Shown here piece by piece: positions 3,698 through 58,262 of a stretch of DNA of 64,000 nt (positions are counted from its first letter, which is position 1; each line of letters opens with the position of its first letter). The translations under genes were made by a program, and so were the position numbers. The stretch is taken from assembly GCA_036259255.1 (NCBI GenBank), contig DATACC010000228.1, forward strand, positions 592-64,591, written 5' to 3'. The DNA comes from Thermoanaerobaculia bacterium (lineage in GTDB: Bacteria; Acidobacteriota; Thermoanaerobaculia; Multivoradales; JBCCEF01). Below the pieces are notes generated by a model. That model was given only the letters and a program-made list of their open reading frames with translations. It had not been told where the DNA came from and did no database searches.

Positions 3698-4396
3698 TCA
3701 GTGGATGGCCTGGGAGGGGCCGCGCTGGGGCGGGAGCAGCAAGCTGTGGCTCACGCCGCCCTCCGCCGGCACCAGCTCGGTGATGGGGTGGCGCAGGGCT
3801 TCGATGGTGCCGTCGGGGTGGCACACCAGGCCGGCGCCGAAGGGGATGCCGAGGCCGCGCACCGGCGGCCGGGCCGCCTCGACGCGGCGGCGCAGGGCCG
3901 CCCAGTCGTCCGCCTCCTCGTGGGCGCCGATCAGTGCCGGCACCAGGTTCAGGTGGTCCCAGCCCAGGTGGACGGCGCCGGCCGAGACTCCCAGCAGCAC
4001 CGCGCCGGCGGCGTAGCGCGCCAGCAGCGCCTCGCGAATGCCGGTCTGCTCGAAGATGCGCCAGGCGCGGCCGGCATCGCCGCCGGCGAGCACCACCAGG
4101 TGGGCCGATTCGAGCCACTGCCGGTCGGCCTCGCCGTAGGCGGAGCGCACCATCGCGTGCTGGTGGATGCCGGCCGCCTCCACCGCCCCCGCGAACAGGT
4201 CGTAGAAGGCGGGATCGTCGTCGTTGGCGGCACCGAGATAGGCGGCCCGCGGGTCCTCCGGCAGGCGGCGGCGGGCGATGTCGTCGAGGACCGATCCCTC
4301 GCCGCCGCGCCGGAAGAGGAGCTGGCTGTCGGCCAGCACGTACAGGGGCTGGAAGGGGCTGTCGTGGCCCGACTCGGTGCTGCCCGGCTCGCTCAC
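3698..4396 (-). CDS. Peptidase S51 family (peptidase E / cyanophycinase-like)
   Basis: VLAGGDAGRAWRIF...LLGVSAGAV motif typical of S51. GTG start at 4396 overlaps the TGA stop of the upstream hydrolase (GTGA coupling). Only the C-terminal 233 aa of track ORF 3698..5404 is coding-like. Confidence 0.65.
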   Translation of the reverse strand: MSEPGSTESGHDSPFQPLYVLADSQLLFRRGGEGSVLDDIARRRLPEDPRAAYLGAANDDDPAFYDLFAGAVEAAGIHQHAMVRSAYGEADRQWLESAHLVVLAGGDAGRAWRIFEQTGIREALLARYAAGAVLLGVSAGAVHLGWDHLNLVPALIGAHEEADDWAALRRRVEAARPPVRGLGIPFGAGLVCHPDGTIEALRHPITELVPAEGGVSHSLLLPPQRGPSQAIH

Positions 4397-20942: not shown

Positions 20943-21041
20943 CGCTTCCTCCTCGGTGGCCGAGCTTAACCGCCGGCGCGGGCCCGCGGGACGCGGTGCG
21001 TCGTGCGCCCGGCCGGCGGATGGGTTAATCTGATCGTCACC

Positions 21042-22585
<1,544 letters not shown>

Positions 22586-22589
<4 letters not shown>

Positions 22590-25369
22590 GCGAAAGCACC
22601 CGCAGGTCCGCGAGCGGCCGGTTCGTCGTGGTCGACGGCAACGAGGTTCCCTACCGCGAGGGCGAGACGGTGCTCTCCGCCGCCCGGCGCCTCGGCGTCG
22701 ACATCCCCACCCTGTGCCACGACGACCGGCTGGAGCCCGCCGGCGCCTGCCGCATGTGCCTGGTGGAGGTCGAGGGACAGCGCCGCCTGCAGCCGGCGTG
22801 CGCCTGGCGCACCGAGCCCGGCATGGTGGTGCGGACCACGACGCCGCGGGTGGAGCGCAATCGCCGCTTCCTGCTCTCGCTCCACCTCGCCGACACCATC
22901 GCCGACCGCGCGGTGGCCGAGGACGCCAACCCGTCGCGCCTCCACGATCTCGCCGAGCGCCACGGCACGGCGGGGGAGTGGGCGCCGGTCGAATCTCCCC
23001 GGGCGGCCCGCCCGGGCGACGACAACCCCTACATCGCCTTCCGCCCGGACCGCTGCATCGCCTGCGGCCTGTGCGTGCGCTACTGCGACGAGATCGAGGG
23101 GGTGAGCGCCATCACGCTGGCCGAGCGCGGCGCCCGCACCACCATCGCCACGGCCGACGGGCGTTCGCTCACCGACACCACCTGCGAGCTGTGCGGCGGC
23201 TGCGTCGGGGTCTGCCCTACCGGGGCGATGACCGAGCGCCCGGCGCTCGCCCACGGCAAGGCGGAGCGCGACCTCGACAAGGTGCGCACCACCTGCAACT
23301 TCTGCGGCGTCGGCTGCCAGATCGATCTCGTGGTGGACCGCGAGGCGGAGCGCGTGGTGAAGGTGACGGCGCCGCCGCCGGGCACCACGGTCAACGACGG
23401 CAACCTGTGCGTCAAGGGCCGCTTCGCCTACGACTTCATCCACCACGAGGACCGCCTCACCACGCCGCTGGTGCGCGCCGAGGACGGGACGCTGCGCCCC
23501 GCCTCGTGGGACGAGGCCCTCGACCGCGTGGTGGCGGGCCTCCAGGGGGTCGCCGCCGAGCACGGCGCCGACGCGCTTGCCTTCATCTCCTCGAGCCGCT
23601 GCACGGGCGAGGAGAATTACCTGATGCAGAAGATGGCGAGGGCCGCCTTCGGCACCCACAACATCCATCAATGCGCCGCCACCTGACACGCTCCCACGGT
23701 CGCCGGTCTGGTGACCACGTACGGAGCGGGGGCGATGACCAACTCGATCCCGGAGATCCGGGACGCTGACTTCCTGTTCGTCATCGGGTCGAACACCACC
23801 GAGGCGCACCCGATCATCGCCATGGAGATGAAGCGGGCGGTACGCCGCGGCGCGAAGCTCGCCGTGGCCGACCCGCGCCGCATCTGGCTCACCGAGATCG
23901 CCGACTGGCACCTGCAGATCGCCCCCGGCACCGACGTCTGGCTCTTGAACGCGATGGCCCACGTGATCCTCTCCGAGGGGCTGGAGGACCGCGCCTGGAT
24001 CGAGGCCAACACCGAGGGCTTCGAGGCGATGCGCGAGACGGCGCTGCGCTACACCCCGGAGGAGGCGGAGAAGGTCACCGGCGTACCGGCGGAGACGATC
24101 CGCGAGGTGGCCCGCGCCTACGCCACCACGCCCAACGCCGGCATCTACTACACGCTGGGCATCACCGAGCACACCACCGGCACCGACAACGTGTACGCGC
24201 TGTCGAACCTGGTTCTGATGACCGGCCACCTGGGCCGCCGCTCGGCGGGGCTCAACCCGCTGCGCGGCCAGAACAACGTGCAGGGTGCCAACGACGCCGG
24301 TGCCACGCCGGTCTTTTACCCCGGCTATCAGCGCGCCGGCGACCCCGAGGTGCGCGAGAAGTTCGCCCGCGCCTGGGGCGTGCCGCAGAGCGAGACTCCC
24401 GGGCTCAACCTCAACGAGATGATGAAGGCGATGAGCGCCGGCAAGGTGCGCGGCATCTACCTCATGGGCGAGGACATCGTGATCTCGGAGCCCAACGCCG
24501 CGCGGGTGGAGGAGGCGCTCAACGGCATCGACTTCCTGGTGGTCCAGGACATCTTCTTCAACGAGAGCTGCCGCTGGGCCGACGTGGTGCTGCCGGCCAC
24601 CTGCTTCGCCGAGAAGGACGGCGTGTTCACCAACTCCGACCGCCGGGTGCAGCGGGTCCGCAAGGCGGTCGAGCCGCCGGGCGAGGCGCGGGCCGACTGG
24701 TGGATCCTCGCCGAGGTGATGCGCCGCGCCGGCCTCCGGCAGCCGGACTACGCCGACCCGGGGGAGATCTACGCCGAGATGGCGGCCCTGTCGCCGAAGT
24801 TCGCCGGCATCAGCCACCAGCGGCTCGAGCGCGAGGGCGGCCTGCAGTGGCCGTGTGCGGCGCCGGACCAGCCGGGCACGGAGTTCCTGCACCAGGGCGG
24901 GGTGCTGCGCGGCAAGGGGCTGTTCGAGGCGGTGGAGTACCGGCCGCCGGCGGAGTGCTCCGACGCCGAGTACCCGTTCATCCTCTCCACCGGCCGCACC
25001 CTCTACCACTACAACGCCGCCACCCAGACCCGGCGTAGCGAGGGGCTGGACCGGAAGCAGCCGGAATCCTTCGTCGAGATCCACCCCCGCGACGCCGCCG
25101 ATCTCGGGGTGGCCGACGGCGCCCTGGTGGAGGTGGTCACCCGCCGCGGTCGGGTGCGCGCCCGGGCGATGCTCAGCCGCCAGGTGAAGCGCCACGTGAT
25201 CTGGATGCCCTTCCACTTCGCCGAGTCGCGCACCAACTACCTCACCAACGACGCCGGCGACGCCGTCACCGGCACCGGCGAGTACAAGGTGTGCGCGGCG
25301 CAGGTCGTCCCCGTCGCCGGCGCCACGGCAGAGCAGCGCTTCCCGGGGGCGTGGGCGGCGGCGGAGTAG
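22586..25369 (+). CDS. Formate dehydrogenase alpha subunit (molybdopterin; NuoG-like 2Fe-2S/4Fe-4S N-terminus), selenocysteine-containing: in-frame TGA at 23684..23686 read as Sec
   Basis: Track ORFs 22586..23686 and 23711..25369 are the same frame separated only by TGA. Junction CAAT-U-HAPTVAGLVTTYGAGAMTNSIPEI matches the FdhF CARV-U-HGPSVAGL...GAMSN active-site region from memory. Confidence 0.85.
23687..23725 (+). promoter_or_regulatory. Bacterial SECIS-like stem-loop downstream of the UGA (GGTCGCC-GGUCUG-GTGACC)
   Basis: Hairpin 23698..23716 about 11 nt after UGA; apical GGUCUG as in E. coli fdhF SECIS (recalled from memory); sequence begins UGACACG like fdhF. Confidence 0.55.
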
Positions 25370-27492: not shown

Positions 27493-28757
27493 TCGCGGCC
27501 CGGGGGGCCGCCGCCATGACCTCTTCCGACCCGAGTGCCGACTGCCCCGCGGCGCTGGCCGGCGCCCTGATGGCGGCCTTTGCCGACCGCACGGGCCTCA
27601 CCGCTCCCGAGCCGGACGCCGAGCCGGACGCTCCCGGCGGGTCTTTCGGCCGGCCGGCGCCGCCGCTCCGGCGCTACCTGTGGACCGACGCCTTCGCCGT
27701 CTGCAATCTCCTGGCGCTGGAGCGCCGCACGGGCGATCCCTCCCACCGCCGCGGCGCCCTGCGCCTGGTCGACCAGGTCCACGAGACCCTCGCCCGCCAC
27801 CGTCCGGACGACGAGCGCACCGGTTGGATCAGCGGCCTGTCCGAGCAGGAGGGGCGCCGCCGCCCCACCGCCGGCGGCCTGCGCATCGGCAAGGAGCTGC
27901 CGGAGCGGGCGCCCGGCGAACCGTACGACCCGGACCGCGAGTGGGACCGCGACGGCCAGTACTACCACTACCTGACGAAGTGGATGCACGCCCTGGCGCA
28001 GGTGGCGTCGGCGACGGGCGAGACGCGCTACCACCGCTGGGCCGCGGAGCTGGCTGCGGTGGCCCAGCGCCGCTTCACGGTGGACGGGCGGATGGCGTGG
28101 AAGATGAGCCTCGACCTCACCCGCCCGCTGGTCCCCTCGATGGGCCAGCACGATCCCCTCGAGGGTTGCGTCACCGCGCTGGTGCTCACCGCCACGGCCC
28201 CGGCGGTGCGCGGCTCCGACGGGGAGCCGGAACCGGACCTCGCCCCCACCACGGCCGCCCTGGCCGTGCTCTGCGAGCGGGGGCGCTGGGCCACCGAGGA
28301 CCCGCTGGGCATCGGCGGCCTGCTCACCGACGCCTGGCGCCTGGCCCAGATCCTCCCGGCGGAGGCCGGGCCGGCGCCGTCGGAGGCGGAGCTGACCGAG
28401 GCCCTGCTCGCTCAGGTCCTGGCGGACTCGGCCCGCAGTCTCCACGCCTTCACCAGCCGCCCCGGTCTCGACCTGCCGGCCGACCGTCGGCTCGGTTTCC
28501 GCGAGCTGGGCCTCGCCCTCGGCCTCGCCGCGGCCGGGCGCCTCGCCGCCTGGAGCCGCGAGGCGCCGCGGGGCCGGCGCTGGCGCGAGCGGATCGAGCC
28601 GCTGGAGCCCTGGGTTGCGCTGGGAGCCCGGATCACGGAGTTCTGGCTCCAGCCCGCGAACCGCAGGGCCCCCACCTGGACCGGCCACCGGAACATCAAC
28701 GAGGTGATGCTGGCCACGGCCTTGGTTCCCGAGGGCTTCCTGGACCTCCCCCGGTAG
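27489..28757 (+). CDS. Hypothetical protein (possible alpha/alpha-toroid enzyme; no confident family)
   Basis: ATG overlaps fumC stop (ATGA); coding-like GC3; motifs [28 protein letters not shown]. Confidence 0.55.
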
Positions 28758-28797
28758 AGGCGGGGCCGGCTGGGAACGGCCACCCGGCCCGCCGGGC

Positions 28798-29898
28798 CTA
28801 CGAAGCCAGGCAGCTCTCCAGAGCCTCCGCCACCGTCGAGGCGCTTCCGTAGCGCCGCTCCGGATCCTTCTCGAGGCACCGCAGCACGATCGCTTCCAAC
28901 CGCGGCGGCACCCCCGGCGCGAGCTCGCGCAGGGGGCGGGGCTCGTCCTGGAGGGTCATCGTCAGCATCGCCTCGCGGGTCTCCGCCGCGAAGGGCCGGC
29001 GGCCGGAGGCGAGCTCGTAGAGGGTGGCGCCCAGGCCGTAGACGTCGGTGCGCGCCTCGATGCGCTCCGCCTCGCCCCGCGCCTGCTCCGGAGCCATGTA
29101 GGCCGGCGTGCCGACCACCCCCTGGGTGCGGTACGGCCGGTGACGACGGATCTCCTCGGCGATGCCAAAATCGATCACCAGCACCCGTCGGCGCCCGCCG
29201 GTGCCCGGCACCACCAGCAGGTTGCGGGGGTTGAGGTCGCAGTGGACGATGCCGCGACGGTGGATCTCGGCCACCGTCCGGCAGGCTTCGGCCATCAGCG
29301 CCACCGCCTCGTGCAGGGACAGGTGGGGTCGCTCGTCCTTCAGGGTGCGGGCGCCGGCGTACGGCATGGAGAACCACGGGTGGCGCCCCAGCATCCCCCG
29401 GGCGAGCACCGGCAGCACGCCGGGATGCTCCACTCGGGCCTGTAACCGCGCCTCCCGCAGCGGCTCGGCGGCGTCGCGGGGACCGAGTGGGAACTTGATG
29501 GCCACCTCGCGGCCGGCGCCGTCGACGGCGCGGAACACGCGGCCCATGCCGCCGGCGCCGAGGAGTTGCACGTTGCGGAACACGGACCAGCCGGCGAGCA
29601 GCCGGCCGGAAGGGCCCGGCGGCGGTGAACTGCCGGGCCCGGGGAGGACCTGCGTCGGCTCACCGGGGGCGACGGTGGGCCGCTGGGCCGGCTCCTCCCC
29701 GGGGAGGGACCAGATCACCGTCGGAACGACCGGTGATCCGCCCCAGGGCCGCCCCCAGCCCAGGCCACCGGCCGCCGTCCCCGGGGGGTTGGCGCAGGTG
29801 GCTTGCTGGGCTGGTGACGGTCCTCTCATCCCTCGGCGAAGCCGGTGAGGGGCACGGGCTTCTAGGAGGGAGTGGCGGCCGGGGGCGAAACGTTTCAC
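28798..29898 (-). CDS. Hanks-type Ser/Thr protein kinase with low-complexity Pro-rich N-terminus; start uncertain
   Basis: GAGGMGRVFRA...VAIKF, catalytic loop HCDLNPRNLL, DFGIA, GTPAYMAPE. Confidence 0.8.
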   Translation of the reverse strand: MKRFAPGRHSLLEARAPHRLRRGMRGPSPAQQATCANPPGTAAGGLGWGRPWGGSPVVPTVIWSLPGEEPAQRPTVAPGEPTQVLPGPGSSPPPGPSGRLLAGWSVFRNVQLLGAGGMGRVFRAVDGAGREVAIKFPLGPRDAAEPLREARLQARVEHPGVLPVLARGMLGRHPWFSMPYAGARTLKDERPHLSLHEAVALMAEACRTVAEIHRRGIVHCDLNPRNLLVVPGTGGRRRVLVIDFGIAEEIRRHRPYRTQGVVGTPAYMAPEQARGEAERIEARTDVYGLGATLYELASGRRPFAAETREAMLTMTLQDEPRPLRELAPGVPPRLEAIVLRCLEKDPERRYGSASTVAEALESCLAS

Positions 29899-30652: not shown

Positions 30653-33600
30653 TCAGTGCCAGACGCCCTGCAGCGTGAACGGAGCCCAGTAATAGGGAGC
30701 GCTCCAGCGCTCCTCACGAACCATCGAAAGCTGCGCCTCCCGCAGCGCTGCGGCCGGCGGCAGGCCCGCATGGAGGATGCCGCCGTAGAAGCGGGTCATC
30801 ACCTCGGCGGTGGCGCGGTCCTGCACGTCCCACAGGCTCGCCACCACGCGCGCGGCGCCCGCGTACATGAAGCCGCGGGTCAGCCCCACCAGCCCCTCCC
30901 CGCGCACCTCCTGTCCCAGCGCCGTGCTGCAGGCGCTCAGGGTCACCAGGTCGGCGTTGAGATCGAGGCCGTAGATGTCGTGGAGGCGCAGGAAGCCCTC
31001 CGCCGGACGGCCCGCCTCGTCGACCAACGACAGCACCAGCCCGGAGAGCTCCGGCACGTCGCCGTGGAGCACCCCGTGGGTGGCGAAGTGGACGAAGCGG
31101 TAGTCGGCCAGCCGGGGCCCGGTGACCGCCTCGCGGGAGGCGGCGAAGTCGAGGGCCACCAGCCGTTCGGACGGCGGCACCAGCTCGGCGATGCGCTCGC
31201 CCTCCTGGCGCGAGAAGCGCAGCCGCCGGTAGTCGAGGGCCGGGGGCGCCGCCCGGCGCTCGGCCGCGAGTTGCACGCCGCCGCCGGCGCCGGCCTGCTG
31301 CGCGGCGGCGCGCGCCACCCGGGGGTCCGAAGGGTGGAACACCGGATCGGCGAACACCGCCAGCAGGCGGCTGGGCGCGGTGCGCTCGGCCATCTCCTGG
31401 CGCAGCAGCACGGCCACCGAGGCCGACGGCAGGTTGACGATCTCGTGGGAGGCGATCAGCGGCTGCGGACCCGTCCCGCCGCCCGGCGAGGACGGGTCCG
31501 CGAGGGCCGCGAACGGCACCAGGTGCAGGGCGCCGTCGGCGACCACCACCAGGCGGCGGTCGCCGAGACGCCCGGCCGCGGGAGCGAGCACCATCTCCGA
31601 CAGCGCCGCCGCCTCGGCGGCCAGCGCCGCGGCGCCGTCGGCCGTCGGCGCCGCGCTCAGGAGCTGGTGAAAGCGGCGCGCGCGCTGCTCGATGGCGGCG
31701 CGGCCGGGCAGCTCGTAACTGGTCAGCCCGTCGGTGCCGAGCACCCAGAGGAAGCTGCGCTCCTCGGCCAGGCTGTACTCGAGCAGCAGCGTGGCGTCGT
31801 CGGTCAGCACCCGGGTGCGCAGCTCGGCGGCGGACAGCGGCGCCGCGGTCAGCGCCGCCCAGCGCGGATCGGTGAGGCGGATCTCCGACTCCAGGAACTG
31901 CAGGTCGTTCTGCACCCGGCGGATCTCCAACTCCAGGCGCTCGATCTCCGCCGCGCCGCCGGACGGCAACGCCTGCGCCGTCTTGTCCTCGGCGTCGTCG
32001 AGCTCCAGGCGGCGCCGAGCGAGACCGTTGAGCTGGCGCCGCAGACCCTCCTCGCGGCGGGCGAGCTCCGGATCGAGGCCGCGGCGCAGCTCCATGCTGG
32101 CCTCGCCGAGCAGGTCGAGCAGGGTGCGCGCCCGCGCCCGTTCGCTGACCGCCAGCGCCTCGCCGTCCCATCCCGCCGCACCGTCGCGGCGGTGCAGCTC
32201 CATCAGCAGGTCGATCAGCTCCTGGTAGTGCTCCTGGCGGTGGGCGAGGTAGCTGGTGCGCAGCTCCTGGACGGCCACCGCGCGGCGCACCTGTTCGCTG
32301 CGGTCGAGGGCCTCCTCCAGGGTCTCGCGGGCGGCATCGAGGCGCCCCAGGGCGCGCTCCGAGCGGGCCCGCTGCAGCAGGTCGCCGACCACCGTCAGGC
32401 TGCCGGTGCCTTGGCTGAAGGCGAAGGCCGCCGCGAAGTGCTCCAGCGCTTCGGCGTGGCGGCCGCGGCGCGCTTCCACCCGGCCCAGGTAGTGGCGCAG
32501 GCGCGCCACCTGGGGGCGCAGACTCTGGCCCTCGGCGCGGGCCAGGCTCTGGCGCAGGTGCTGCTCGGCGGCGGCCAGGCGGTCGGCTTCGAGCTCCGCC
32601 ACGCCGACGGCGAGCAGCACCTGGATCTCGGCCTGCGGATCGTCGACCCGCTCCAGGGCGGCGAGGGCCCGCTCGAGGTGGGGCAGGGCCTCGGCGGGAC
32701 GGTCGCGCAGCACGAAGGTCCACGCCAGGTTGGACAGCGCCAGCGCCTCGGCGCGGGGGTCGTCGCTCTCGCGGGCCAGCGCCACGCTCTCGGTGAAGAA
32801 GTGCTCCGCCTCGTCGTTCTCGCCCATCAGGTGGTGCAGGTTGCCGATGTTGCTCACCGCCACCGCCTGGGCGCGGCGATTGCCGCTGTCGCGGGCGATC
32901 TCGCGCACCTCGCGGTAGCTGGCGAGGGCCTCCTGCACCCGACCCTGGTACTCGTAGACGGTGCCCAGGTTGTTCAGCGCCCCGGTCAGCACCGAGCGGT
33001 CGCCGTCGGAGCGGGCGATCTCGAGGGCGCGTTCGAAGTGACCGACCGCCTCCTCGACCCGGCCCAGGTGGATCAGCAGCATTCCGAGATTGTTGAGCGA
33101 GAGCGACTCGCCACCCCGGTCCTCCAACGCGCGGTGCAGCTCGATCGCGCGAGCCAGCTCGGCCAGGGCCGCGGGATAGTCGCCGCGGCGGCGGTGGAAG
33201 GTGCCGGCGCTCTGGTAGGCGAAGGCGAGATCGTCGGTGGCGCCGGCGTCCTCGAGCCGCGCCAGGGCCTCGCGGAAGCGGCGGTCGGCCTGCTCGCCGT
33301 CGCCGGCCCGTACCGCCGCGCGGGCGAGGTGGAGCAGCGACTTGCCCTCGCCGGCGGCGTCGCCGGCCTCCCGCCACAGGGCGAGGGCCTCCTCGAAGGC
33401 GGCGGTGGCGGCCTCGGGCTCTTCGAGCACGCTGTAGAGCCGGGCGAGGTCGTGGAGCACCCAGGCCTGTCGCCGCCGATCGCCCAGCTCGCGCCACAGC
33501 GTCGCGGCCTCGCGGTGGGCGGCCACGGCGCGCCGCCGCCGCTCCGGATCGCGGGTGGTCCAGGCGAGCAGGGAGGCTTCGTACTGGGCGCGCTCGGCGG

Positions 33601-34123
33601 CCACCCGGCGCTCGTCGCCCGGGGCGGCGGGGCGCCGCGCCTCGAGACGCAGAAGGTAGCTGCCGGCGCTATCCTCCCCCGCCACCACCTCCAGCCGATG
33701 CAGGCCCGCCGCCCCGGCCAGGTAGGAGAGGGTCTCGGCACCCCACTCCCCGCTGGTGCTGTCGATCTCGGCCGCCGGCATGCCCGCCGCATCGAGCAGC
33801 CGCAGCGACAGGTCGACGCCGCGCTGGTCGACGATCACGCGCAGGAAGTCACCGGCGGCCAGCATCACCGTCCAGGCGTGGGCGGCGGGGCCGGCGATGC
33901 GCCACTCGGCGGCGGCACCGAGGGGCGGCAGCGCCGCCGCCTCGGGTGCGGCGCCGGGGCCCGGCTCGGCCGGGCGTGCGGTCTCGGCTGGGCCGCCTTC
34001 GGGGAGCTCGGCCCGGGGCTGCTTTTCAGCCGTGATCGGGAGGGCGGCCAGCAGGCAGAGCATCGCCGCGGCCAGGAGCGAGCGGAGCGACGGCGGGGGC
34101 TGGAGGCGACCGTGCCGCATCAT
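30653..34123 (-). CDS. Secreted TPR-repeat protein with C-terminal CHAT (caspase-like) protease domain and an N-terminal PPC-like beta domain
   Basis: Signal peptide after MMRHG; many TPR-like AxxxxxAL repeats; CHAT catalytic dyad context FVHFATHG and LVTLSACSTALG; about 1157 aa. Confidence 0.8.
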   Translation of the reverse strand: MMRHGRLQPPPSLRSLLAAAMLCLLAALPITAEKQPRAELPEGGPAETARPAEPGPGAAPEAAALPPLGAAAEWRIAGPAAHAWTVMLAAGDFLRVIVDQRGVDLSLRLLDAAGMPAAEIDSTSGEWGAETLSYLAGAAGLHRLEVVAGEDSAGSYLLRLEARRPAAPGDERRVAAERAQYEASLLAWTTRDPERRRRAVAAHREAATLWRELGDRRRQAWVLHDLARLYSVLEEPEAATAAFEEALALWREAGDAAGEGKSLLHLARAAVRAGDGEQADRRFREALARLEDAGATDDLAFAYQSAGTFHRRRGDYPAALAELARAIELHRALEDRGGESLSLNNLGMLLIHLGRVEEAVGHFERALEIARSDGDRSVLTGALNNLGTVYEYQGRVQEALASYREVREIARDSGNRRAQAVAVSNIGNLHHLMGENDEAEHFFTESVALARESDDPRAEALALSNLAWTFVLRDRPAEALPHLERALAALERVDDPQAEIQVLLAVGVAELEADRLAAAEQHLRQSLARAEGQSLRPQVARLRHYLGRVEARRGRHAEALEHFAAAFAFSQGTGSLTVVGDLLQRARSERALGRLDAARETLEEALDRSEQVRRAVAVQELRTSYLAHRQEHYQELIDLLMELHRRDGAAGWDGEALAVSERARARTLLDLLGEASMELRRGLDPELARREEGLRRQLNGLARRRLELDDAEDKTAQALPSGGAAEIERLELEIRRVQNDLQFLESEIRLTDPRWAALTAAPLSAAELRTRVLTDDATLLLEYSLAEERSFLWVLGTDGLTSYELPGRAAIEQRARRFHQLLSAAPTADGAAALAAEAAALSEMVLAPAAGRLGDRRLVVVADGALHLVPFAALADPSSPGGGTGPQPLIASHEIVNLPSASVAVLLRQEMAERTAPSRLLAVFADPVFHPSDPRVARAAAQQAGAGGGVQLAAERRAAPPALDYRRLRFSRQEGERIAELVPPSERLVALDFAASREAVTGPRLADYRFVHFATHGVLHGDVPELSGLVLSLVDEAGRPAEGFLRLHDIYGLDLNADLVTLSACSTALGQEVRGEGLVGLTRGFMYAGAARVVASLWDVQDRATAEVMTRFYGGILHAGLPPAAALREAQLSMVREERWSAPYYWAPFTLQGVWH

Positions 34124-34219
34124 CGAGACATCCTGCAGGTTACCGAGTGGTCCCCATGCTAGAAGCGAGGGCGGCGCGTGTAAAGCGCGGGAGTCGCGGA
34201 GCAACTCCGCCGGCGGCGC

Positions 34220-35224
34220 TCAGCGCCGCACCGGACCGCGCACGACCTCGATCTCGAAGGCGCCCACCAGCTCGGCGCGGTCGCCGTCGGCGAGGCCCTC
34301 GACCAGCACCTCGTGGCGGCCGGCGACCAGTGCCTCGGCCGGTACGGTGACCGCGACCACCGGTCCGGCGTCGGTGGCTGTCTGTTCGGCGCCGGTGCGG
34401 CTCCACACCTCGCTGCCGGTGGGGCCGAGCAGGCGCACCCGGTAGGCGGGGTAGCCCTCGTCGCCGCCGGTGTCGAGCTGGAGGTGCACCAGCTCGGCCT
34501 GCGGCGGCACCGCCAGCTCGCGGACGCCCCGATCCGAGCGGGTGGCGAGGGCCAGCAGGAAGCTCACCGCGACCGGCTCGCTGGCGGCAGCCTCCGTCTC
34601 CAGCCGGGCCAGCTCGGCAGCCAGGTGGTCGGCGCGCTGGCGCACGGCGGCGAGCTCGGAGACGGTGCCGGCAGCGGGCTCCTCGGCGTCTTCGCCTCCG
34701 GAGTCGGCGGCGGCTCGACGAGCCTCGGCGAGCTGGCGTTCCAGCGCGGCGATCTCGGCCTCCTGGGCCTCCGCAGCCGCCTGCTCGGCCTGCATCGTCT
34801 CCACCCGCTCCTCGAGCTGCGCGGCGCGCCAGCCGAGCCAGCCGGTGAGCGCCACCAGCACGACGAAGGCGCTCGCGGCGGCGAGGCGCAGGGCCGGGCG
34901 GGGGAGCCAGCCGAAGACGCGCCGCGCCGGCCGGGGAGCATTGCGCGCCGCGTGGCGCGCCTCTTCGGCCAGGACCCGGGCGAAGGCGATCCGCTCACCC
35001 ATGCCCTCGCGGCCGAGGTGGCGCGCGGCGAATTCGGCGTGGTCGCGGCGGTCCAGATCGCCCCGGGCGTACTCCTCGATCAGCTCGTCCTCGGCGGCGA
35101 GCACGGCCTCGTAGGCGTCGTCGTCGGCCAGGAGCCCGGCCTCGAAGCGATCGCGCTCCCGATCGTCGAGCCTACCCAGCAGGTAGCGGCGGGCCTGGTC
35201 GTGGCGGCTGTCGAGTGTGCTCAT
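34220..35224 (-). CDS. Putative anti-sigma factor (single TM, coiled-coil, C-terminal periplasmic domain)
   Basis: Immediately downstream of ECF sigma; TM segment ALRLAAASAFVVLVALTGWLGW; Ala/Glu-rich coiled coil. Confidence 0.55.
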   Translation of the reverse strand: MSTLDSRHDQARRYLLGRLDDRERDRFEAGLLADDDAYEAVLAAEDELIEEYARGDLDRRDHAEFAARHLGREGMGERIAFARVLAEEARHAARNAPRPARRVFGWLPRPALRLAAASAFVVLVALTGWLGWRAAQLEERVETMQAEQAAAEAQEAEIAALERQLAEARRAAADSGGEDAEEPAAGTVSELAAVRQRADHLAAELARLETEAAASEPVAVSFLLALATRSDRGVRELAVPPQAELVHLQLDTGGDEGYPAYRVRLLGPTGSEVWSRTGAEQTATDAGPVVAVTVPAEALVAGRHEVLVEGLADGDRAELVGAFEIEVVRGPVRR

Positions 35225-35294
35225 CGCGATCGTCTCCCTCGGTTGGCGCCGGACCCATCCCGACTTCCACCCTGGAGTGACGTGGCCGTTGAAT

Positions 35295-35909
35295 TCATTT
35301 CACATCGACGCACTGTCGCACGCAGTCTTCCAGCTTCGCGCGCAGGCGATGGGCGCGGATGCGGAGTGCGTTGATCGGCACGCCGAGGTCGTCCGCCAGG
35401 CGCTTGCGGTTCTCGATGCGGGCCCCGCCCTCGCCGCTGTGGTAGCGCAGCAGCAGGTCGCGCTGCCGCGGGTGGAGCTCGCCGAGGCACTGCTGCAGAC
35501 AACGCATGCGCTCGTCGTCGGAATCGTCGGGTTCGGGCTCGCGCACTTCGCGCCCCATCTCGGCGACGGCCGCTTCCTGCCGCTTCTGGTCGCGCAGGAG
35601 CTCCTTGAACACGAGATAGGCGACGCTGCAGGCGTAGCGGAAGGGGTCCTCGGTGCGCAACTCCAGCCCGCCGGCGGCCTTGTGGGCCACCCGGTTCATG
35701 GTTTCGTCGACCAGCTCGTCGGGGCGCGGGCAGCCGCGCCATTCGAACAGGCGCAGCAGCTTGGCGCGAATGCGCTCGTACTCCCGCGCCGCGGTGTCGC
35801 GGTCGGGACCGAGGAGGTCGAGAAGCCCGGCGAGGGCGTCGGGGGTCAACGCCCACCGCTCGCCCCGGGCCGCGCCGCCCCCGCGGCTGGTGGACTCGTG
35901 AGTCGCCAT
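35295..35909 (-). CDS. ECF (sigma-70 family group IV) RNA polymerase sigma factor
   Basis: Region 2-like FEWRGCP...DELVDETMNRV and region 4 HTH RRLADDLGVPINALRIRAHRLRAKL. Confidence 0.8.
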   Translation of the reverse strand: MATHESTSRGGGAARGERWALTPDALAGLLDLLGPDRDTAAREYERIRAKLLRLFEWRGCPRPDELVDETMNRVAHKAAGGLELRTEDPFRYACSVAYLVFKELLRDQKRQEAAVAEMGREVREPEPDDSDDERMRCLQQCLGELHPRQRDLLLRYHSGEGGARIENRKRLADDLGVPINALRIRAHRLRAKLEDCVRQCVDVK

Positions 35910-55414: not shown

Positions 55415-56092
55415 ATGGACGAAGGCAAGCGCAAGGACGGGGGCGGCCGCGGGGGTGGCCCTGCAGGGCCGGAGCCCGTCAGTCCGGGACTCAGCCGGCG
55501 CTCGTTCCTGCGCGGTGCCGCGGTGGCGGGCCTGGCGGCGCCGGAGCTGGCACGGGCGGCCGAGGCGGCGGCGGGGGACCCTGTGCGCCGCGAGCACGGG
55601 GTCGAGGTGCTCGGCCCCGGTCCGGTGCCGGTGCGGCTCGACGTCAACGGCCGGGTGCGCGAGGTGCGCGTGGAGCCGCGGGTCACTCTGCTCGACGCCC
55701 TGCGCGACCGGCTCGGCCTGACCGGCGCAAAGCGTGTGTGCGACCGCGGCACCTGCGGCGCCTGCACCGTGCTGCTCGAAGGCCGCCCGGTCTACGCCTG
55801 CAGCCTGCTCGCGGTGCAGGCCCGGGGCCGGCGGATCGAAACCGTGGAGAGCCTCGGCACGCCGGAGCGGCTGCATCCGCTCCAGGCCGCCTTCGTCGCC
55901 AACGACGCCCAGCAGTGCGGTTTCTGCACGCCCGGCTTCGTGATGGCCGCCAAGGCCCTGGTCGACCGGGTGCCGGATCCCTCGGTCGAGCAGGTCCACG
56001 AGGCGCTGTCCGGCAACTTCTGCCGCTGCGGCACCTACGCCGGTCTGCGCCGGGCGGTGGCCGGTGCCGGGCAGGGAGGCCGCGATGCCTGA
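55415..56092 (+). CDS. Molybdenum hydroxylase (xanthine dehydrogenase/aldehyde oxidoreductase family) 2Fe-2S small subunit with Tat signal
   Basis: SRRSFLRGAAVAGLAAP twin-arginine signal; CDRGTCGACTV and CGFCTPG 2Fe-2S motifs; GGAGG RBS. Confidence 0.85.
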   Translation: MDEGKRKDGGGRGGGPAGPEPVSPGLSRRSFLRGAAVAGLAAPELARAAEAAAGDPVRREHGVEVLGPGPVPVRLDVNGRVREVRVEPRVTLLDALRDRLGLTGAKRVCDRGTCGACTVLLEGRPVYACSLLAVQARGRRIETVESLGTPERLHPLQAAFVANDAQQCGFCTPGFVMAAKALVDRVPDPSVEQVHEALSGNFCRCGTYAGLRRAVAGAGQGGRDA

Positions 56093-58262
56093 GTACGCCT
56101 GGCCCCCCGCCGCCGAGCGCCGCCTACTCGGCAAGCGCATCGCCCGCCTCGATGGACCGGGCAAGGTGACCGGCACCGTCAAGTACACCTACGACCTGCA
56201 GCCGGAGGGCATGCTCCACGGCCGCATCCTCCACTGCCCCCACGCCCACGCCCGGGTGCGCCGCCTCGACGTCTCCCGCGCCGAGGGCATGGCCGGCGTG
56301 CGGGCGCTGCGGGTGATCCACCCCGAGGGCTCGGAGATCCGGTGGGCGATGGACGAGGTGCTCTACCTCGCCGCCGACAGCGAGCAGATCGCCGCCGACG
56401 CCCTGGCCGCCGTGGTCGTCGAGTACGAGGTGCTGCCCCACTTCGTCGATGCCGAGGACCGCGACGGGGCGCCGGAGACGCGCGACGACGAGGAGGAGGT
56501 GGTCGGCGATCCTGCCGCCGCCCTCGCCGGCGCCGCCCACCGCCACGTCGGCGAGTACGGCCTGCCGACGGTCGCCCACAACTGCCTGGAGGCCCACGGC
56601 CAGGTGTGCTCCTGGGAGGGCGACGAGCTGACCGCGTGGTGCTCCACCCAGGCGGTCAGCGCCCTGCCGGCCCAGTTCGCCGAACGCCTCGGCGTACCGG
56701 CGGCCAACGTGCGGGTGCGCACCGAGGTGCTCGGCGGCGGCTTCGGCAGCAAGTTCAGCGTCGACCGCTGGGGGATCGAGTGCGCCGAGTTGGCCCGCGC
56801 CGCCGGCCGGCCGGTGAAGCTGATGCTCGAGCGCGAGCCGGAGCTGACCATCGCCGGCGACCGGCCCTCGGCCTACGCCCGCGTCGAGCTGGCCGCCGAC
56901 GCCGAGGGCCGCCTGGTCGGCTGGAGCTCGGAGTCGTGGGGCTCGGGCGGCCTGGCCGGCTCGGGCTCGCCGCCGCTGCCCTACGTCTTCGCGGTGCCCG
57001 ACCGGCGCCACCGTCACGTCTCGGTGCCCACCCACGTGGCCGGCTCCCGCGCCTGGCGGGCGCCGAACCACCCGCAGGCGTGCTTCATCACGCTCGCCGC
57101 CCTGGAGGATCTGGCGGCGGCCGCCGGCCTCGATCCGCTGGAGCTGGTGCGCCGCAACCTCCACCTCACCGGGCGCCTGGAGCGCATCTACCGCGACGAG
57201 CTGGAGATCGCCGATCGGTTGATGGGATGGTCGCGCCGCTGGCGGCCCCGCCCGGCGCGCCGGGAGGTCGGCCGCTGGGCGGACGGGCCGCGCCGCCGCG
57301 GCCTGGGGCTGTCGGTGCACACCTGGGGCGGCCGCGGCCACCGCAGCAACTGCGCGCTGACGTTGCACCCCGACGGCGGCGTCGACGTGCGCATCGCCAC
57401 CCAGGACCTCGGCACCGGCACCCGCACCGCCGTGGCCATCGTCGCCGCCGAGACCCTGGGGCTGCCCCTCGCCGCCGTGCGCGTGCACCTCGGCGACAGC
57501 CGCTTCCCGGCCTCCGGCGCCTCCGGCGGCTCGACCACCATCGGCGGGGTCGCCTCGTCCACCCGGCGCGCCGCCCAGAACCTGCTCGAGGACCTCTTCC
57601 GCCGCGTGGCACCGCAGCTCGAGGCCGGTGCCGACGAGCTGGAGGCGCGGGACGGCCGGGTGGGCGTGGCCGGCGATCCGGACCGCTCGATGCCGTGGAA
57701 GCGGGCGGCGGCGCTGGCCGGACCGTCGCCTCTGGTCGCCACCGGCGCCAATCCCGGCCCGGGCGAGCTCACCGAGTCCGGCGTCGGCGGCGTGCAGATG
57801 GCCGAGGTGACGGTGGACACCGAGACCGGCGTGGTGCGGGTCGAGAAGATGGTGGCGGTGCAGGACTGCGGCCTGATCGTCGACCTGGAGACCGCCGAGA
57901 GCCAGGTCTACGGCGGCCTGATCATGGGCATCAGCACCGCGCTGGCCGAGGAGAAGGTGATCGACCCGGTGACCGGGCGCATGCTCAACGTCGACTTCGA
58001 GTCCTACAAGCTGGCCGGCATCGCCGACGTCGGCGAGCTGGTGGTGCACATGATGACCGGTCCGGGCTACGACGACCGCGGCGCCATCGGGCTCGGCGAG
58101 CCGCCGGTGATCTCGCCCGGTGCGGCGATCTCGAACGCCGTCGCCAACGCCCTCGGGGTGCGGGTGCCGTACCTGCCGCTGACCCCCGACCGGGTGCTCG
58201 CCGCCCTGGAAGACGCGGTCCGCGCACCGGCCACGGCCGGCGGCTCCGGGGGGAGCGCCTGA
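56085..58262 (+). CDS. Molybdenum hydroxylase molybdopterin-binding large subunit
   Basis: XDH/CoxL-family length and motifs (GGGFGSK, VQDCG...E); start overlaps small subunit stop. Confidence 0.85.
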   Translation: MPEYAWPPAAERRLLGKRIARLDGPGKVTGTVKYTYDLQPEGMLHGRILHCPHAHARVRRLDVSRAEGMAGVRALRVIHPEGSEIRWAMDEVLYLAADSEQIAADALAAVVVEYEVLPHFVDAEDRDGAPETRDDEEEVVGDPAAALAGAAHRHVGEYGLPTVAHNCLEAHGQVCSWEGDELTAWCSTQAVSALPAQFAERLGVPAANVRVRTEVLGGGFGSKFSVDRWGIECAELARAAGRPVKLMLEREPELTIAGDRPSAYARVELAADAEGRLVGWSSESWGSGGLAGSGSPPLPYVFAVPDRRHRHVSVPTHVAGSRAWRAPNHPQACFITLAALEDLAAAAGLDPLELVRRNLHLTGRLERIYRDELEIADRLMGWSRRWRPRPARREVGRWADGPRRRGLGLSVHTWGGRGHRSNCALTLHPDGGVDVRIATQDLGTGTRTAVAIVAAETLGLPLAAVRVHLGDSRFPASGASGGSTTIGGVASSTRRAAQNLLEDLFRRVAPQLEAGADELEARDGRVGVAGDPDRSMPWKRAAALAGPSPLVATGANPGPGELTESGVGGVQMAEVTVDTETGVVRVEKMVAVQDCGLIVDLETAESQVYGGLIMGISTALAEEKVIDPVTGRMLNVDFESYKLAGIADVGELVVHMMTGPGYDDRGAIGLGEPPVISPGAAISNAVANALGVRVPYLPLTPDRVLAALEDAVRAPATAGGSGGSA

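Follow-up and report, generated by a model that had tools for sequence, protein, structure and literature searches.

A predicted selenocysteine-containing formate dehydrogenase encoded in a two-gene cassette of a Thermoanaerobaculia bacterium

The subject of this analysis is a 64,000-nucleotide (nt) stretch of DNA from a Thermoanaerobaculia bacterium (contig DATACC010000228.1 of assembly GCA_036259255.1), referred to below as the window, whose G+C content is 72.5% and to which all coordinates refer. We are highly confident that its positions 21003–25369 constitute a two-gene operon coding for a soluble, probably nicotinamide adenine dinucleotide (NAD(H))-linked, formate dehydrogenase (FDH) containing molybdenum or tungsten (Mo/W), and that codon 367 of the alpha subunit gene (fdhA), a UGA, is decoded as selenocysteine (Sec) by means of a hairpin acting as a selenocysteine insertion sequence (SECIS). 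The alpha subunit gene and the elements within it that bear on this prediction are the following:

22586–25369, plus strand: fdhA, gene of the formate dehydrogenase alpha subunit, 927 residues with predicted Sec at position 367 (reading frame, Pfam, TIGR01591, PDB relatives)
23684–23686, plus strand: in-frame UGA, predicted Sec 367 in the motif U-H-A-P and predicted Mo/W ligand (alignment to Sec140 of FdhF and to the Cys of FdsA)
23698–23716, plus strand: predicted SECIS upper stem-loop with the 5′ arm GGUCGCC (23698–23704), the loop GGUCU (23705–23709), and the 3′ arm GGUGACC (23710–23716)
23681–23739, plus strand: extent of a sub-threshold match to the Rfam family SECIS_3 (RF01989), including a possible lower stem (cmscan)

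Two open reading frames (ORFs), 22586–23686 (plus strand, 366 amino acids (aa), ATG start) and 23711–25369 (plus strand, 552 aa, GTG start), lie in a common frame within this region. Translation of 22586–25369 in that frame gives 927 sense codons with codon 367 (TGA, 23684–23686) as the sole internal stop, and the junction reads HQCAAT*HAPTVAGLVTTYGAGAMTNSIPEI. The G+C content of third codon positions (GC3) amounts to 0.96 upstream and 0.97 downstream of the TGA. The molybdopterin domain PF00384 is interrupted at the TGA, with profile positions 1–76 found ahead of this codon and positions 96–352 behind it (Pfam).

For comparisons with protein families and solved structures, the joined FdhA was used with cysteine (Cys) put in place of Sec at codon 367. 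The N-terminus of the protein, with 2Fe-2S and 4Fe-4S domains, is NuoG-like, and behind it come catalytic domains of the molybdopterin type, i.e., those carrying bis-molybdopterin guanine dinucleotide (bis-MGD), the cofactor-binding domains recognized by Pfam being PF04879, PF00384, and PF01568. The NCBIfam model TIGR01591 (“formate dehydrogenase subunit alpha”) is matched over its entire length (profile positions 1–672 of 672) with 802.4 bits, against a cut-off of 666.25. Among the PDB entries, end-to-end matches were found with 9wxb_B (E 2.5e-224), with FdsA of Rhodobacter capsulatus (6tg9_A; E 9.7e-219), and with the alpha subunit of the tungsten FDH of Methylobacterium extorquens (7e5z_A; E 2.9e-212). 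What 22586–25369 encodes is the alpha subunit of a Mo/W bis-MGD formate dehydrogenase, with its activity and cofactor predicted from these similarities.

The position of the TGA within this protein carries much of the argument. In the alignment with the structure of R. capsulatus FdsA, codon 367 falls on the Cys of “carvCHsptgygl”, and in the alignment with the fdhF gene of E. coli (sequence taken from NC_000913) the window TGA is aligned with the fdhF TGA that encodes Sec140. Residues His141, Arg333, and Lys44, as well as Cys8, Cys11, Cys15, and Cys42 (FdhF numbering), correspond to 368 H, 560 R, 277 K, and 237, 240, 244, and 275 C of the window protein, and all of them are identical; the four cysteines are equivalents of the [4Fe-4S] ligands. 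The motif listed for FdhA in Table 1 of PMC13188914 is U-H-x-P, and the window reads U-H-A-P. An earlier note, made from the sequence alone, had claimed that two ORFs of one frame are split by this TGA only and that the junction matches the Sec active-site region of FdhF, and had named alignment with FdhF as one way to check it. Translation and alignment agree with both claims, the TGA lying inside, and not outside, the conserved active-site Cys/Sec column.

Homologues of the protein were sought in a collection of 5.8 billion proteins, and the 120 best matches were considered. Sixty-six of them are close (about 78–83% identity) and all 66 are fragments of 543–567 aa beginning just after the Sec codon, while the remaining 54, with identity not exceeding 64%, are full-length and carry Cys at the site without exception (54 of 54). 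In addition, GTDB species representatives were scanned with FdhA, which yielded 80 loci (L001–L080). Most of these loci come from metagenome-assembled genomes (MAGs) of Acidobacteriota/Thermoanaerobaculia/“Ca. Multivoradales” and show 77–84% identity; the rest, with 67–75% identity, are labelled as Myxococcota, Planctomycetota, Chloroflexota (Caldilineae, Anaerolineales), and other groups. With its roughly 80% identity, the group into which the copy in the window falls is composed mainly of MAGs of Thermoanaerobaculia-type Acidobacteriota. In each of the 77 loci that include the junction, TGA stands at the position of codon 367 (77/77).

The second element of the prediction, the hairpin at 23698–23716, lies inside the codons for T-V-A-G-L-V-T and is separated from the TGA by a spacer of 11 nt (23687–23697). 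It is 19 nt long and has 7 base pairs (bp), one of them G-U, a 5-nt loop, and a folding energy of −10.9 kcal/mol. The earlier note had placed a hairpin 11 nt past the TGA and had likened its GGUCUG to the SECIS of E. coli fdhF, and both statements proved correct: the arms and loop (GGTCGCC/GGTCT/GGTGACC) are found where expected, and GGTCTG occupies positions +21 to +26 counted from the T of the TGA, the very offset that it has in E. coli fdhF. Amongst the 897 TGA trinucleotides of the window, only one is followed by GGTCTG at +21 to +26. The published bacterial SECIS (bSECIS) model, as quoted in PMC13188914, assumes a loop of 3–9 nt, an upper stem of 4–16 bp, a distance from UGA to loop of 16–37 nt, and a minimum free energy (MFE) of −7.5 kcal/mol or lower, as well as a G as the first or second nucleotide of the loop, with G or U coming after it in most cases. 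The window hairpin falls within all four of its constraints (5-nt loop and 7-bp stem, loop beginning with GG, 18 nt from UGA to loop, i.e., 23687–23704, and −10.9 kcal/mol), and the loop begins with GGU in 77 of 78 aligned sequences. It should be stressed that most of the GGUCUG sequence is dictated by the conserved peptide V-A-G-L, and independent information at the RNA level is contained only in the third codon positions.

These positions were analyzed in a gap-free alignment of 78 hairpin sequences, 75 of which are distinct. In the distinct sequences, 97.5% of the cells of the upper helix are paired, while shifted registers pair only 34–57% of cells. Pair 27–39, formed by the third positions of two Val codons, is C-G in 49 sequences, G-C in 19, U-A in five, and U-G in two, and is never unpaired; on a neighbour-joining protein tree, its state changed at least seven times, each time to another pair. 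The closing pair 30–36 shows one swap of C-G to G-C, and a replacement of Thr by Ala turned U-A into U-G, leaving the pair unbroken. Altogether, three pairs of the upper helix have changes on both sides, and the observed covariation score was reached by none of 500 shuffles. Synonymous sites point in the same direction. Within a codon alignment of the whole gene, 168 codons are fourfold degenerate with a conserved amino acid, and the three with the lowest third-position entropy are +6, +7, and +8 (GCC GGU CUG), with 0.099 bit each; the codon next in rank has 0.77, and the median of the gene is 1.40. Moreover, GGT is the preferred codon at just one of 43 conserved Gly positions, namely the Gly of the loop. 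Judged from these alignments, the comparative evidence for selection acting on the hairpin at the RNA level is decisive.

Six Cys-type homologues were recovered as DNA, and genes for FdhD and MoaA lie alongside in the Cys-type relatives. Their codon for the loop Gly is GGG in four cases, GGC in one, and GGT in one, and most of them lose the pairing. In one of the six (the gene of protein P0004 from a planctomycete MAG, locus L083, positions 4084–4128), TGC is followed by a sequence in which seven of seven pairs form in the SECIS register and GGT CTG is kept; this hairpin is possibly what is left of a SECIS, as has been reported for Sec-to-Cys conversions (PMC1794560). Nothing similar is seen in the five remaining Cys-type homologues.

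Several observations weigh against Sec decoding, and they concern the stability of the hairpin, its Rfam score, and the genes surrounding the operon. A 62-nt segment folds with −24.2 kcal/mol, which corresponds to z = −0.89, and 42 of 200 shuffled sequences fold as well; furthermore, 11.4% of the 897 window TGA trinucleotides have a hairpin behind them that is SECIS-like in its geometry and has 7 bp or more. For both these reasons, folding energy was discarded as evidence, and the hairpin taken alone is weak evidence, as its stability is not above chance in GC-rich DNA. Other features do exceed chance: the TGA coincides with the active-site column and is conserved in all 77 loci, and the hairpin shows covariation and conserved synonymous sites.

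As regards Rfam, a cmscan run with relaxed threshold reported SECIS_3 with 40.2 bits (E 3.7e-08 in a search of 201 bases) over model positions 1–59 of 59, and the consensus of this family and the window element have in common the core UGACACG...CC.ACGGU.GC..GUCUG. The gathering score of 63 was not reached, and at the gathering threshold no SECIS_3 match was found in the window or in 11 related loci. By the curated threshold, the element of this clade is consequently not a member of RF01989; it would act like a SECIS without being filed in that family. A possible lower stem, 23689–23694 with 23723–23728, is 85% paired, and the only two of its pairs that vary are found open in about 45% of sequences. 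An extended lower stem, to which both the MFE fold and the Rfam model point, was rejected, because it is not supported by covariation beyond the coding constraint.

Genes for the Sec machinery were searched for with E. coli SelA, SelB, and SelD as tblastn queries in the window and 84 loci, and with ARAGORN in 80 loci. The 64-kb window contains no selA, selB, or selD (Pfam on about 44 ORFs; tblastn) and no tRNA-Sec (Rfam, ARAGORN), nor were any of these found in the 6-kb flanks of 80 related loci (tblastn, ARAGORN). Two ARAGORN calls in the window, an 82-nt tRNA-Thr(CGU) at 28753–28834 (minus strand) and an 88-nt tRNA-Pro(CGG) at 33911–33998 (plus strand), have no Rfam tRNA match, and the latter sits in the gene of a CHAT-TPR protein, on the opposite strand; both are probably false positives in GC-rich DNA. 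In the planctomycete P1, a selenoprotein fdhA is joined with nuoEF in an operon, and the Sec-insertion genes are present in its genome, although not co-located (Kim et al. 2016, PMC4807772), so that their absence from the neighbourhood analyzed here is unsurprising. FdhA is also the most widespread bacterial selenoprotein; of 75 genomes that use Sec, 67 were found to contain it (Zhang et al. 2006, PMC1794560). In the literature, nothing specific was found on selenoproteins in Thermoanaerobaculia or Multivoradales. By analogy with P1, selA, selB, selC, and selD would be located elsewhere in the host genome.

Among the alternatives, the one that survives best, although we consider it very improbable, is that the UGA is read as Cys or another standard residue by a suppressor tRNA, such as a selC*-type tRNA-Cys or an allo-tRNA, and not as Sec. 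Opal-reading tRNA-Cys species resembling tRNA-Sec and acidobacterial allo-tRNAs do exist (PMC5389517), but general suppression needs no hairpin, and here there is one of SelB-type geometry, with a GGUC loop at the fdhF offset and with signs of selection at the RNA level. Such suppression would also be costly, given that TGA closes 19 of 29 confident window genes, the beta subunit gene among them. The same count shows that UGA is not reassigned genome-wide, and this possibility was thereby ruled out. Rfam found no such tRNA in the window, and the published organism with the same operon architecture has complete Sec machinery (PMC4807772).

Still less probable is that the TGA is a true stop and fdhA is naturally split into two genes, one for an Fe-S protein of 366 aa and the other for a molybdopterin protein of 552 aa whose start is GTG 23711. 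TGA is an ordinary stop in this genome, and gene callers annotate precisely such truncated proteins of 543–567 aa in 66 close relatives. Their called starts, however, vary (in P0006–P0119, the call falls either on the V of LVTTY or on the M of GAMTNS), which is what arbitrary calling would produce, and GTG 23711 is not preceded by a Shine-Dalgarno sequence. The split would furthermore deprive the enzyme of its metal-ligand residue and cut PF00384 in the middle of the domain. Eight codons separate the TGA from the start codon that follows it. The peptide encoded by them, HAPTVAGL, which includes the catalytic His, is invariant, and only synonymous variation occurs, at codons +2 to +5. An invariant peptide with varying third positions implies that the stretch is translated, which argues against a true split.

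A last alternative is that fdhA is of the Cys type and owes its TGA to mutation into a pseudogene or to faulty sequencing or assembly. One base change is enough to turn TGC or TGT into TGA, and homologues of the Cys type abound, but the TGA recurs in 77 of 77 independently assembled related genomes, which excludes an error or a pseudogene, and the coding signal and protein conservation retain full strength on both sides of it next to a hairpin under selection, so that we assign this explanation practically no probability.

If the UGA is decoded as Sec, as we conclude, the course of events can be proposed by analogy with E. coli fdhF. With the ribosome at the UGA, SelB carrying Sec-tRNA(Sec) would bind the apical GGUC(U) loop and Sec would be inserted; both SelB binding and the insertion of selenium are put forward on the strength of this analogy. 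The selenium of Sec would then ligate the metal, Mo or W, in the bis-MGD centre. Electrons from formate would pass through the NuoG-like N-terminal Fe-S chain to the flavin mononucleotide (FMN) of the beta subunit and from there to NAD+, and they would flow in reverse during CO2 reduction. That NAD+ is the electron acceptor is suggested by homology, namely by the FMN/NADH-binding domain PF01512 of the beta subunit.

The gene of this subunit directly precedes fdhA, and two more features are relevant here:

21003–22589, plus strand: gene of the beta subunit, a fused NuoE-like/NuoF-like protein, 528 aa from GTG 21003 (Pfam, PDB match)
22575–22579, plus strand: GGAGG, Shine-Dalgarno-like, 6 nt upstream of the fdhA ATG and within the 3′ end of the beta subunit gene (sequence reading)

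The true start of the beta subunit gene may be ATG 21043. The NuoE-like part of the protein is a 2Fe-2S thioredoxin-like domain and the NuoF-like part comprises FMN/NADH-binding and 4Fe-4S domains (Pfam families PF01257, PF01512, PF10531, and PF10589). Among solved structures, it is matched best by the beta subunit of the tungsten NAD-dependent FDH of M. extorquens (7e5z_B; E 4.8e-99, residues 44–516). The NCBIfam model nuoF_fam scored 422 bits, below its cut-off of 558, and the subunit should therefore be described as NuoF-like and not as NuoF proper. The stop codon of this gene (TGA, 22587–22589) overlaps the start of fdhA as ATGA. The immediate proximity of a NuoEF-like gene, which the earlier note had also pointed out, was thus confirmed, with the gene ending at 22589, the ATGA overlap, and GGAGG placed 6 nt before the ATG. 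The overlap and GGAGG make translational coupling of the beta subunit gene and fdhA plausible.

DNA similarity between the window and the 80 relatives runs from about 21000 to about 25370, its limits coinciding exactly with those of the two-gene unit, while the flanks are unrelated. The two genes behave as a unit placed in varying contexts, which is consistent with a mobile two-gene cassette. In one relative (L025), about 1.3 kb of extra DNA is present between the nuoEF-like gene and fdhA. Unlike in the Cys-type relatives, no FdhD or MoaA genes flank the window cassette. Downstream of the cassette, a gene of the class II fumarase/aspartase family is located.

Upstream of it lies a low-GC island (16000–19600; 52–60% G+C, compared to about 72% around it) containing a 753-aa ORF at 16199–18460 (plus strand), for which no Pfam or PADLOC match was found, and an ORF at 18464–19567 (plus strand) resembling type II DNA methyltransferases (PADLOC PDLC03325, 5.8e-30). 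With about 1.4 kb between it and the fdh cassette, this island is probably restriction-modification-like and of horizontal origin. In the remaining part of the window, the region 30653–35299 (minus strand) encodes a 1188-aa protein with tetratricopeptide repeats (TPR) and a CHAT (caspase-like protease) domain, followed by a 359-aa ORF without a family match, and a Ser/Thr protein kinase gene (28798–29898) adjoins this region. A second molybdoenzyme gene, at 55944–58262 (plus strand), codes for a molybdopterin-binding subunit of the xanthine dehydrogenase/aldehyde oxidase family (PF02738, PF20256, and PF01315). An in-frame minus-strand TGA at 12239–12241, flanked by coding signal on either side, was considered as the mark of a second selenoprotein and rejected, since it separates tandem paralogues, the second ORF having its own ATG 15 nt downstream. 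These paralogues (11585–12877, minus strand), of about 200 aa each, lie in one frame, have motifs such as NPEFR..F and VKLDPW.D in common, and have no Pfam match; they are a gene duplication and not a selenoprotein.

The practical consequence for annotation is that two ORFs should be replaced by one selenoprotein of 927 residues, and the error is a systematic one, as it occurs in 66 of 66 close public homologues. The presence of fdhA with a Sec codon would also mark the host, probably a Thermoanaerobaculia-type acidobacterium, as a user of Sec. The enzyme, if functional as proposed, might reduce CO2 in a reaction coupled to NADH and would then be of practical interest, and NAD-linked Sec-containing FDHs as a class hold some biotechnological interest for CO2 reduction. 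The current understanding of Sec decoding is left unchanged by the finding. The arrangement is a textbook one, and the architecture of the nuoEF-fdhA(Sec) operon has already been published (PMC4807772). No published account of an enzyme purified from this clade was found.

Comparison with known systems begins with E. coli FdhF (PDB 1AA6/1FDO), with which the window protein shares the Sec column, the U-H-x-P motif, and the catalytic and [4Fe-4S] residues, at 41% identity over 693 aligned residues. The layout of the fdhF SECIS is also the same (11 nt from UGA to stem, GGUCUG at +21 to +26), although its upper stem has 6 bp, a bulged U, and a GGUC tetraloop, whereas the window stem is an unbulged one of 7 bp with a 5-nt loop. 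FdhF lacks the NuoG-like N-terminal Fe-S extension and a NuoEF partner, and is part of the formate-hydrogen lyase complex. In its two-subunit build, the window enzyme is matched by FoDH1 of M. extorquens (PDB 7E5Z/7VW6), an alpha-beta heterodimer of a NuoG-like alpha subunit and a fused NuoE/NuoF-like beta subunit, but the metal-ligand residue of FoDH1 is Cys (“crlCHassvaal”), while the window has UGA/Sec with a SECIS. Of the solved alpha subunits, those closest to the window protein, with alignments over the entire length, belong to the Mo-containing NAD-dependent FdsABG(D) of R. capsulatus and Cupriavidus necator (PDB 6TG9/6TGA; also 9WXB). These enzymes have Cys for Sec, and their FdsG (NuoE-like) and FdsB (NuoF-like) are separate chains, in contrast to the fused subunit encoded in the window. 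The PDB relatives (R. capsulatus, M. extorquens, and 9WXB) are thus all Cys-type.

Planctomycete P1 and Plesiocystis pacifica SIR-1 have a nuoEF-fdhA(Sec) operon of the same architecture as in the window, and this operon was reported to have spread by horizontal transfer (Kim et al. 2016, PMC4807772). P. pacifica SIR-1 is one of our loci (L064); the TGA is found there together with the same hairpin, and the C-terminal part of the window protein is matched with 69% identity. It is possible, although we would not go so far as to call it probable, that the cassette is a Sec version of the oxygen-tolerant soluble NAD-linked FDHs and a self-contained two-gene unit whose movement among five or more phyla does not depend on the sel genes. 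Its SECIS hardly varies in sequence and stays under the curated threshold of Rfam. Kim et al. described the operon from only two genomes, while in this work it was found in 77 species-level genomes of several phyla, which shows that the nuoEF-fdhA(Sec) cassette is widespread.

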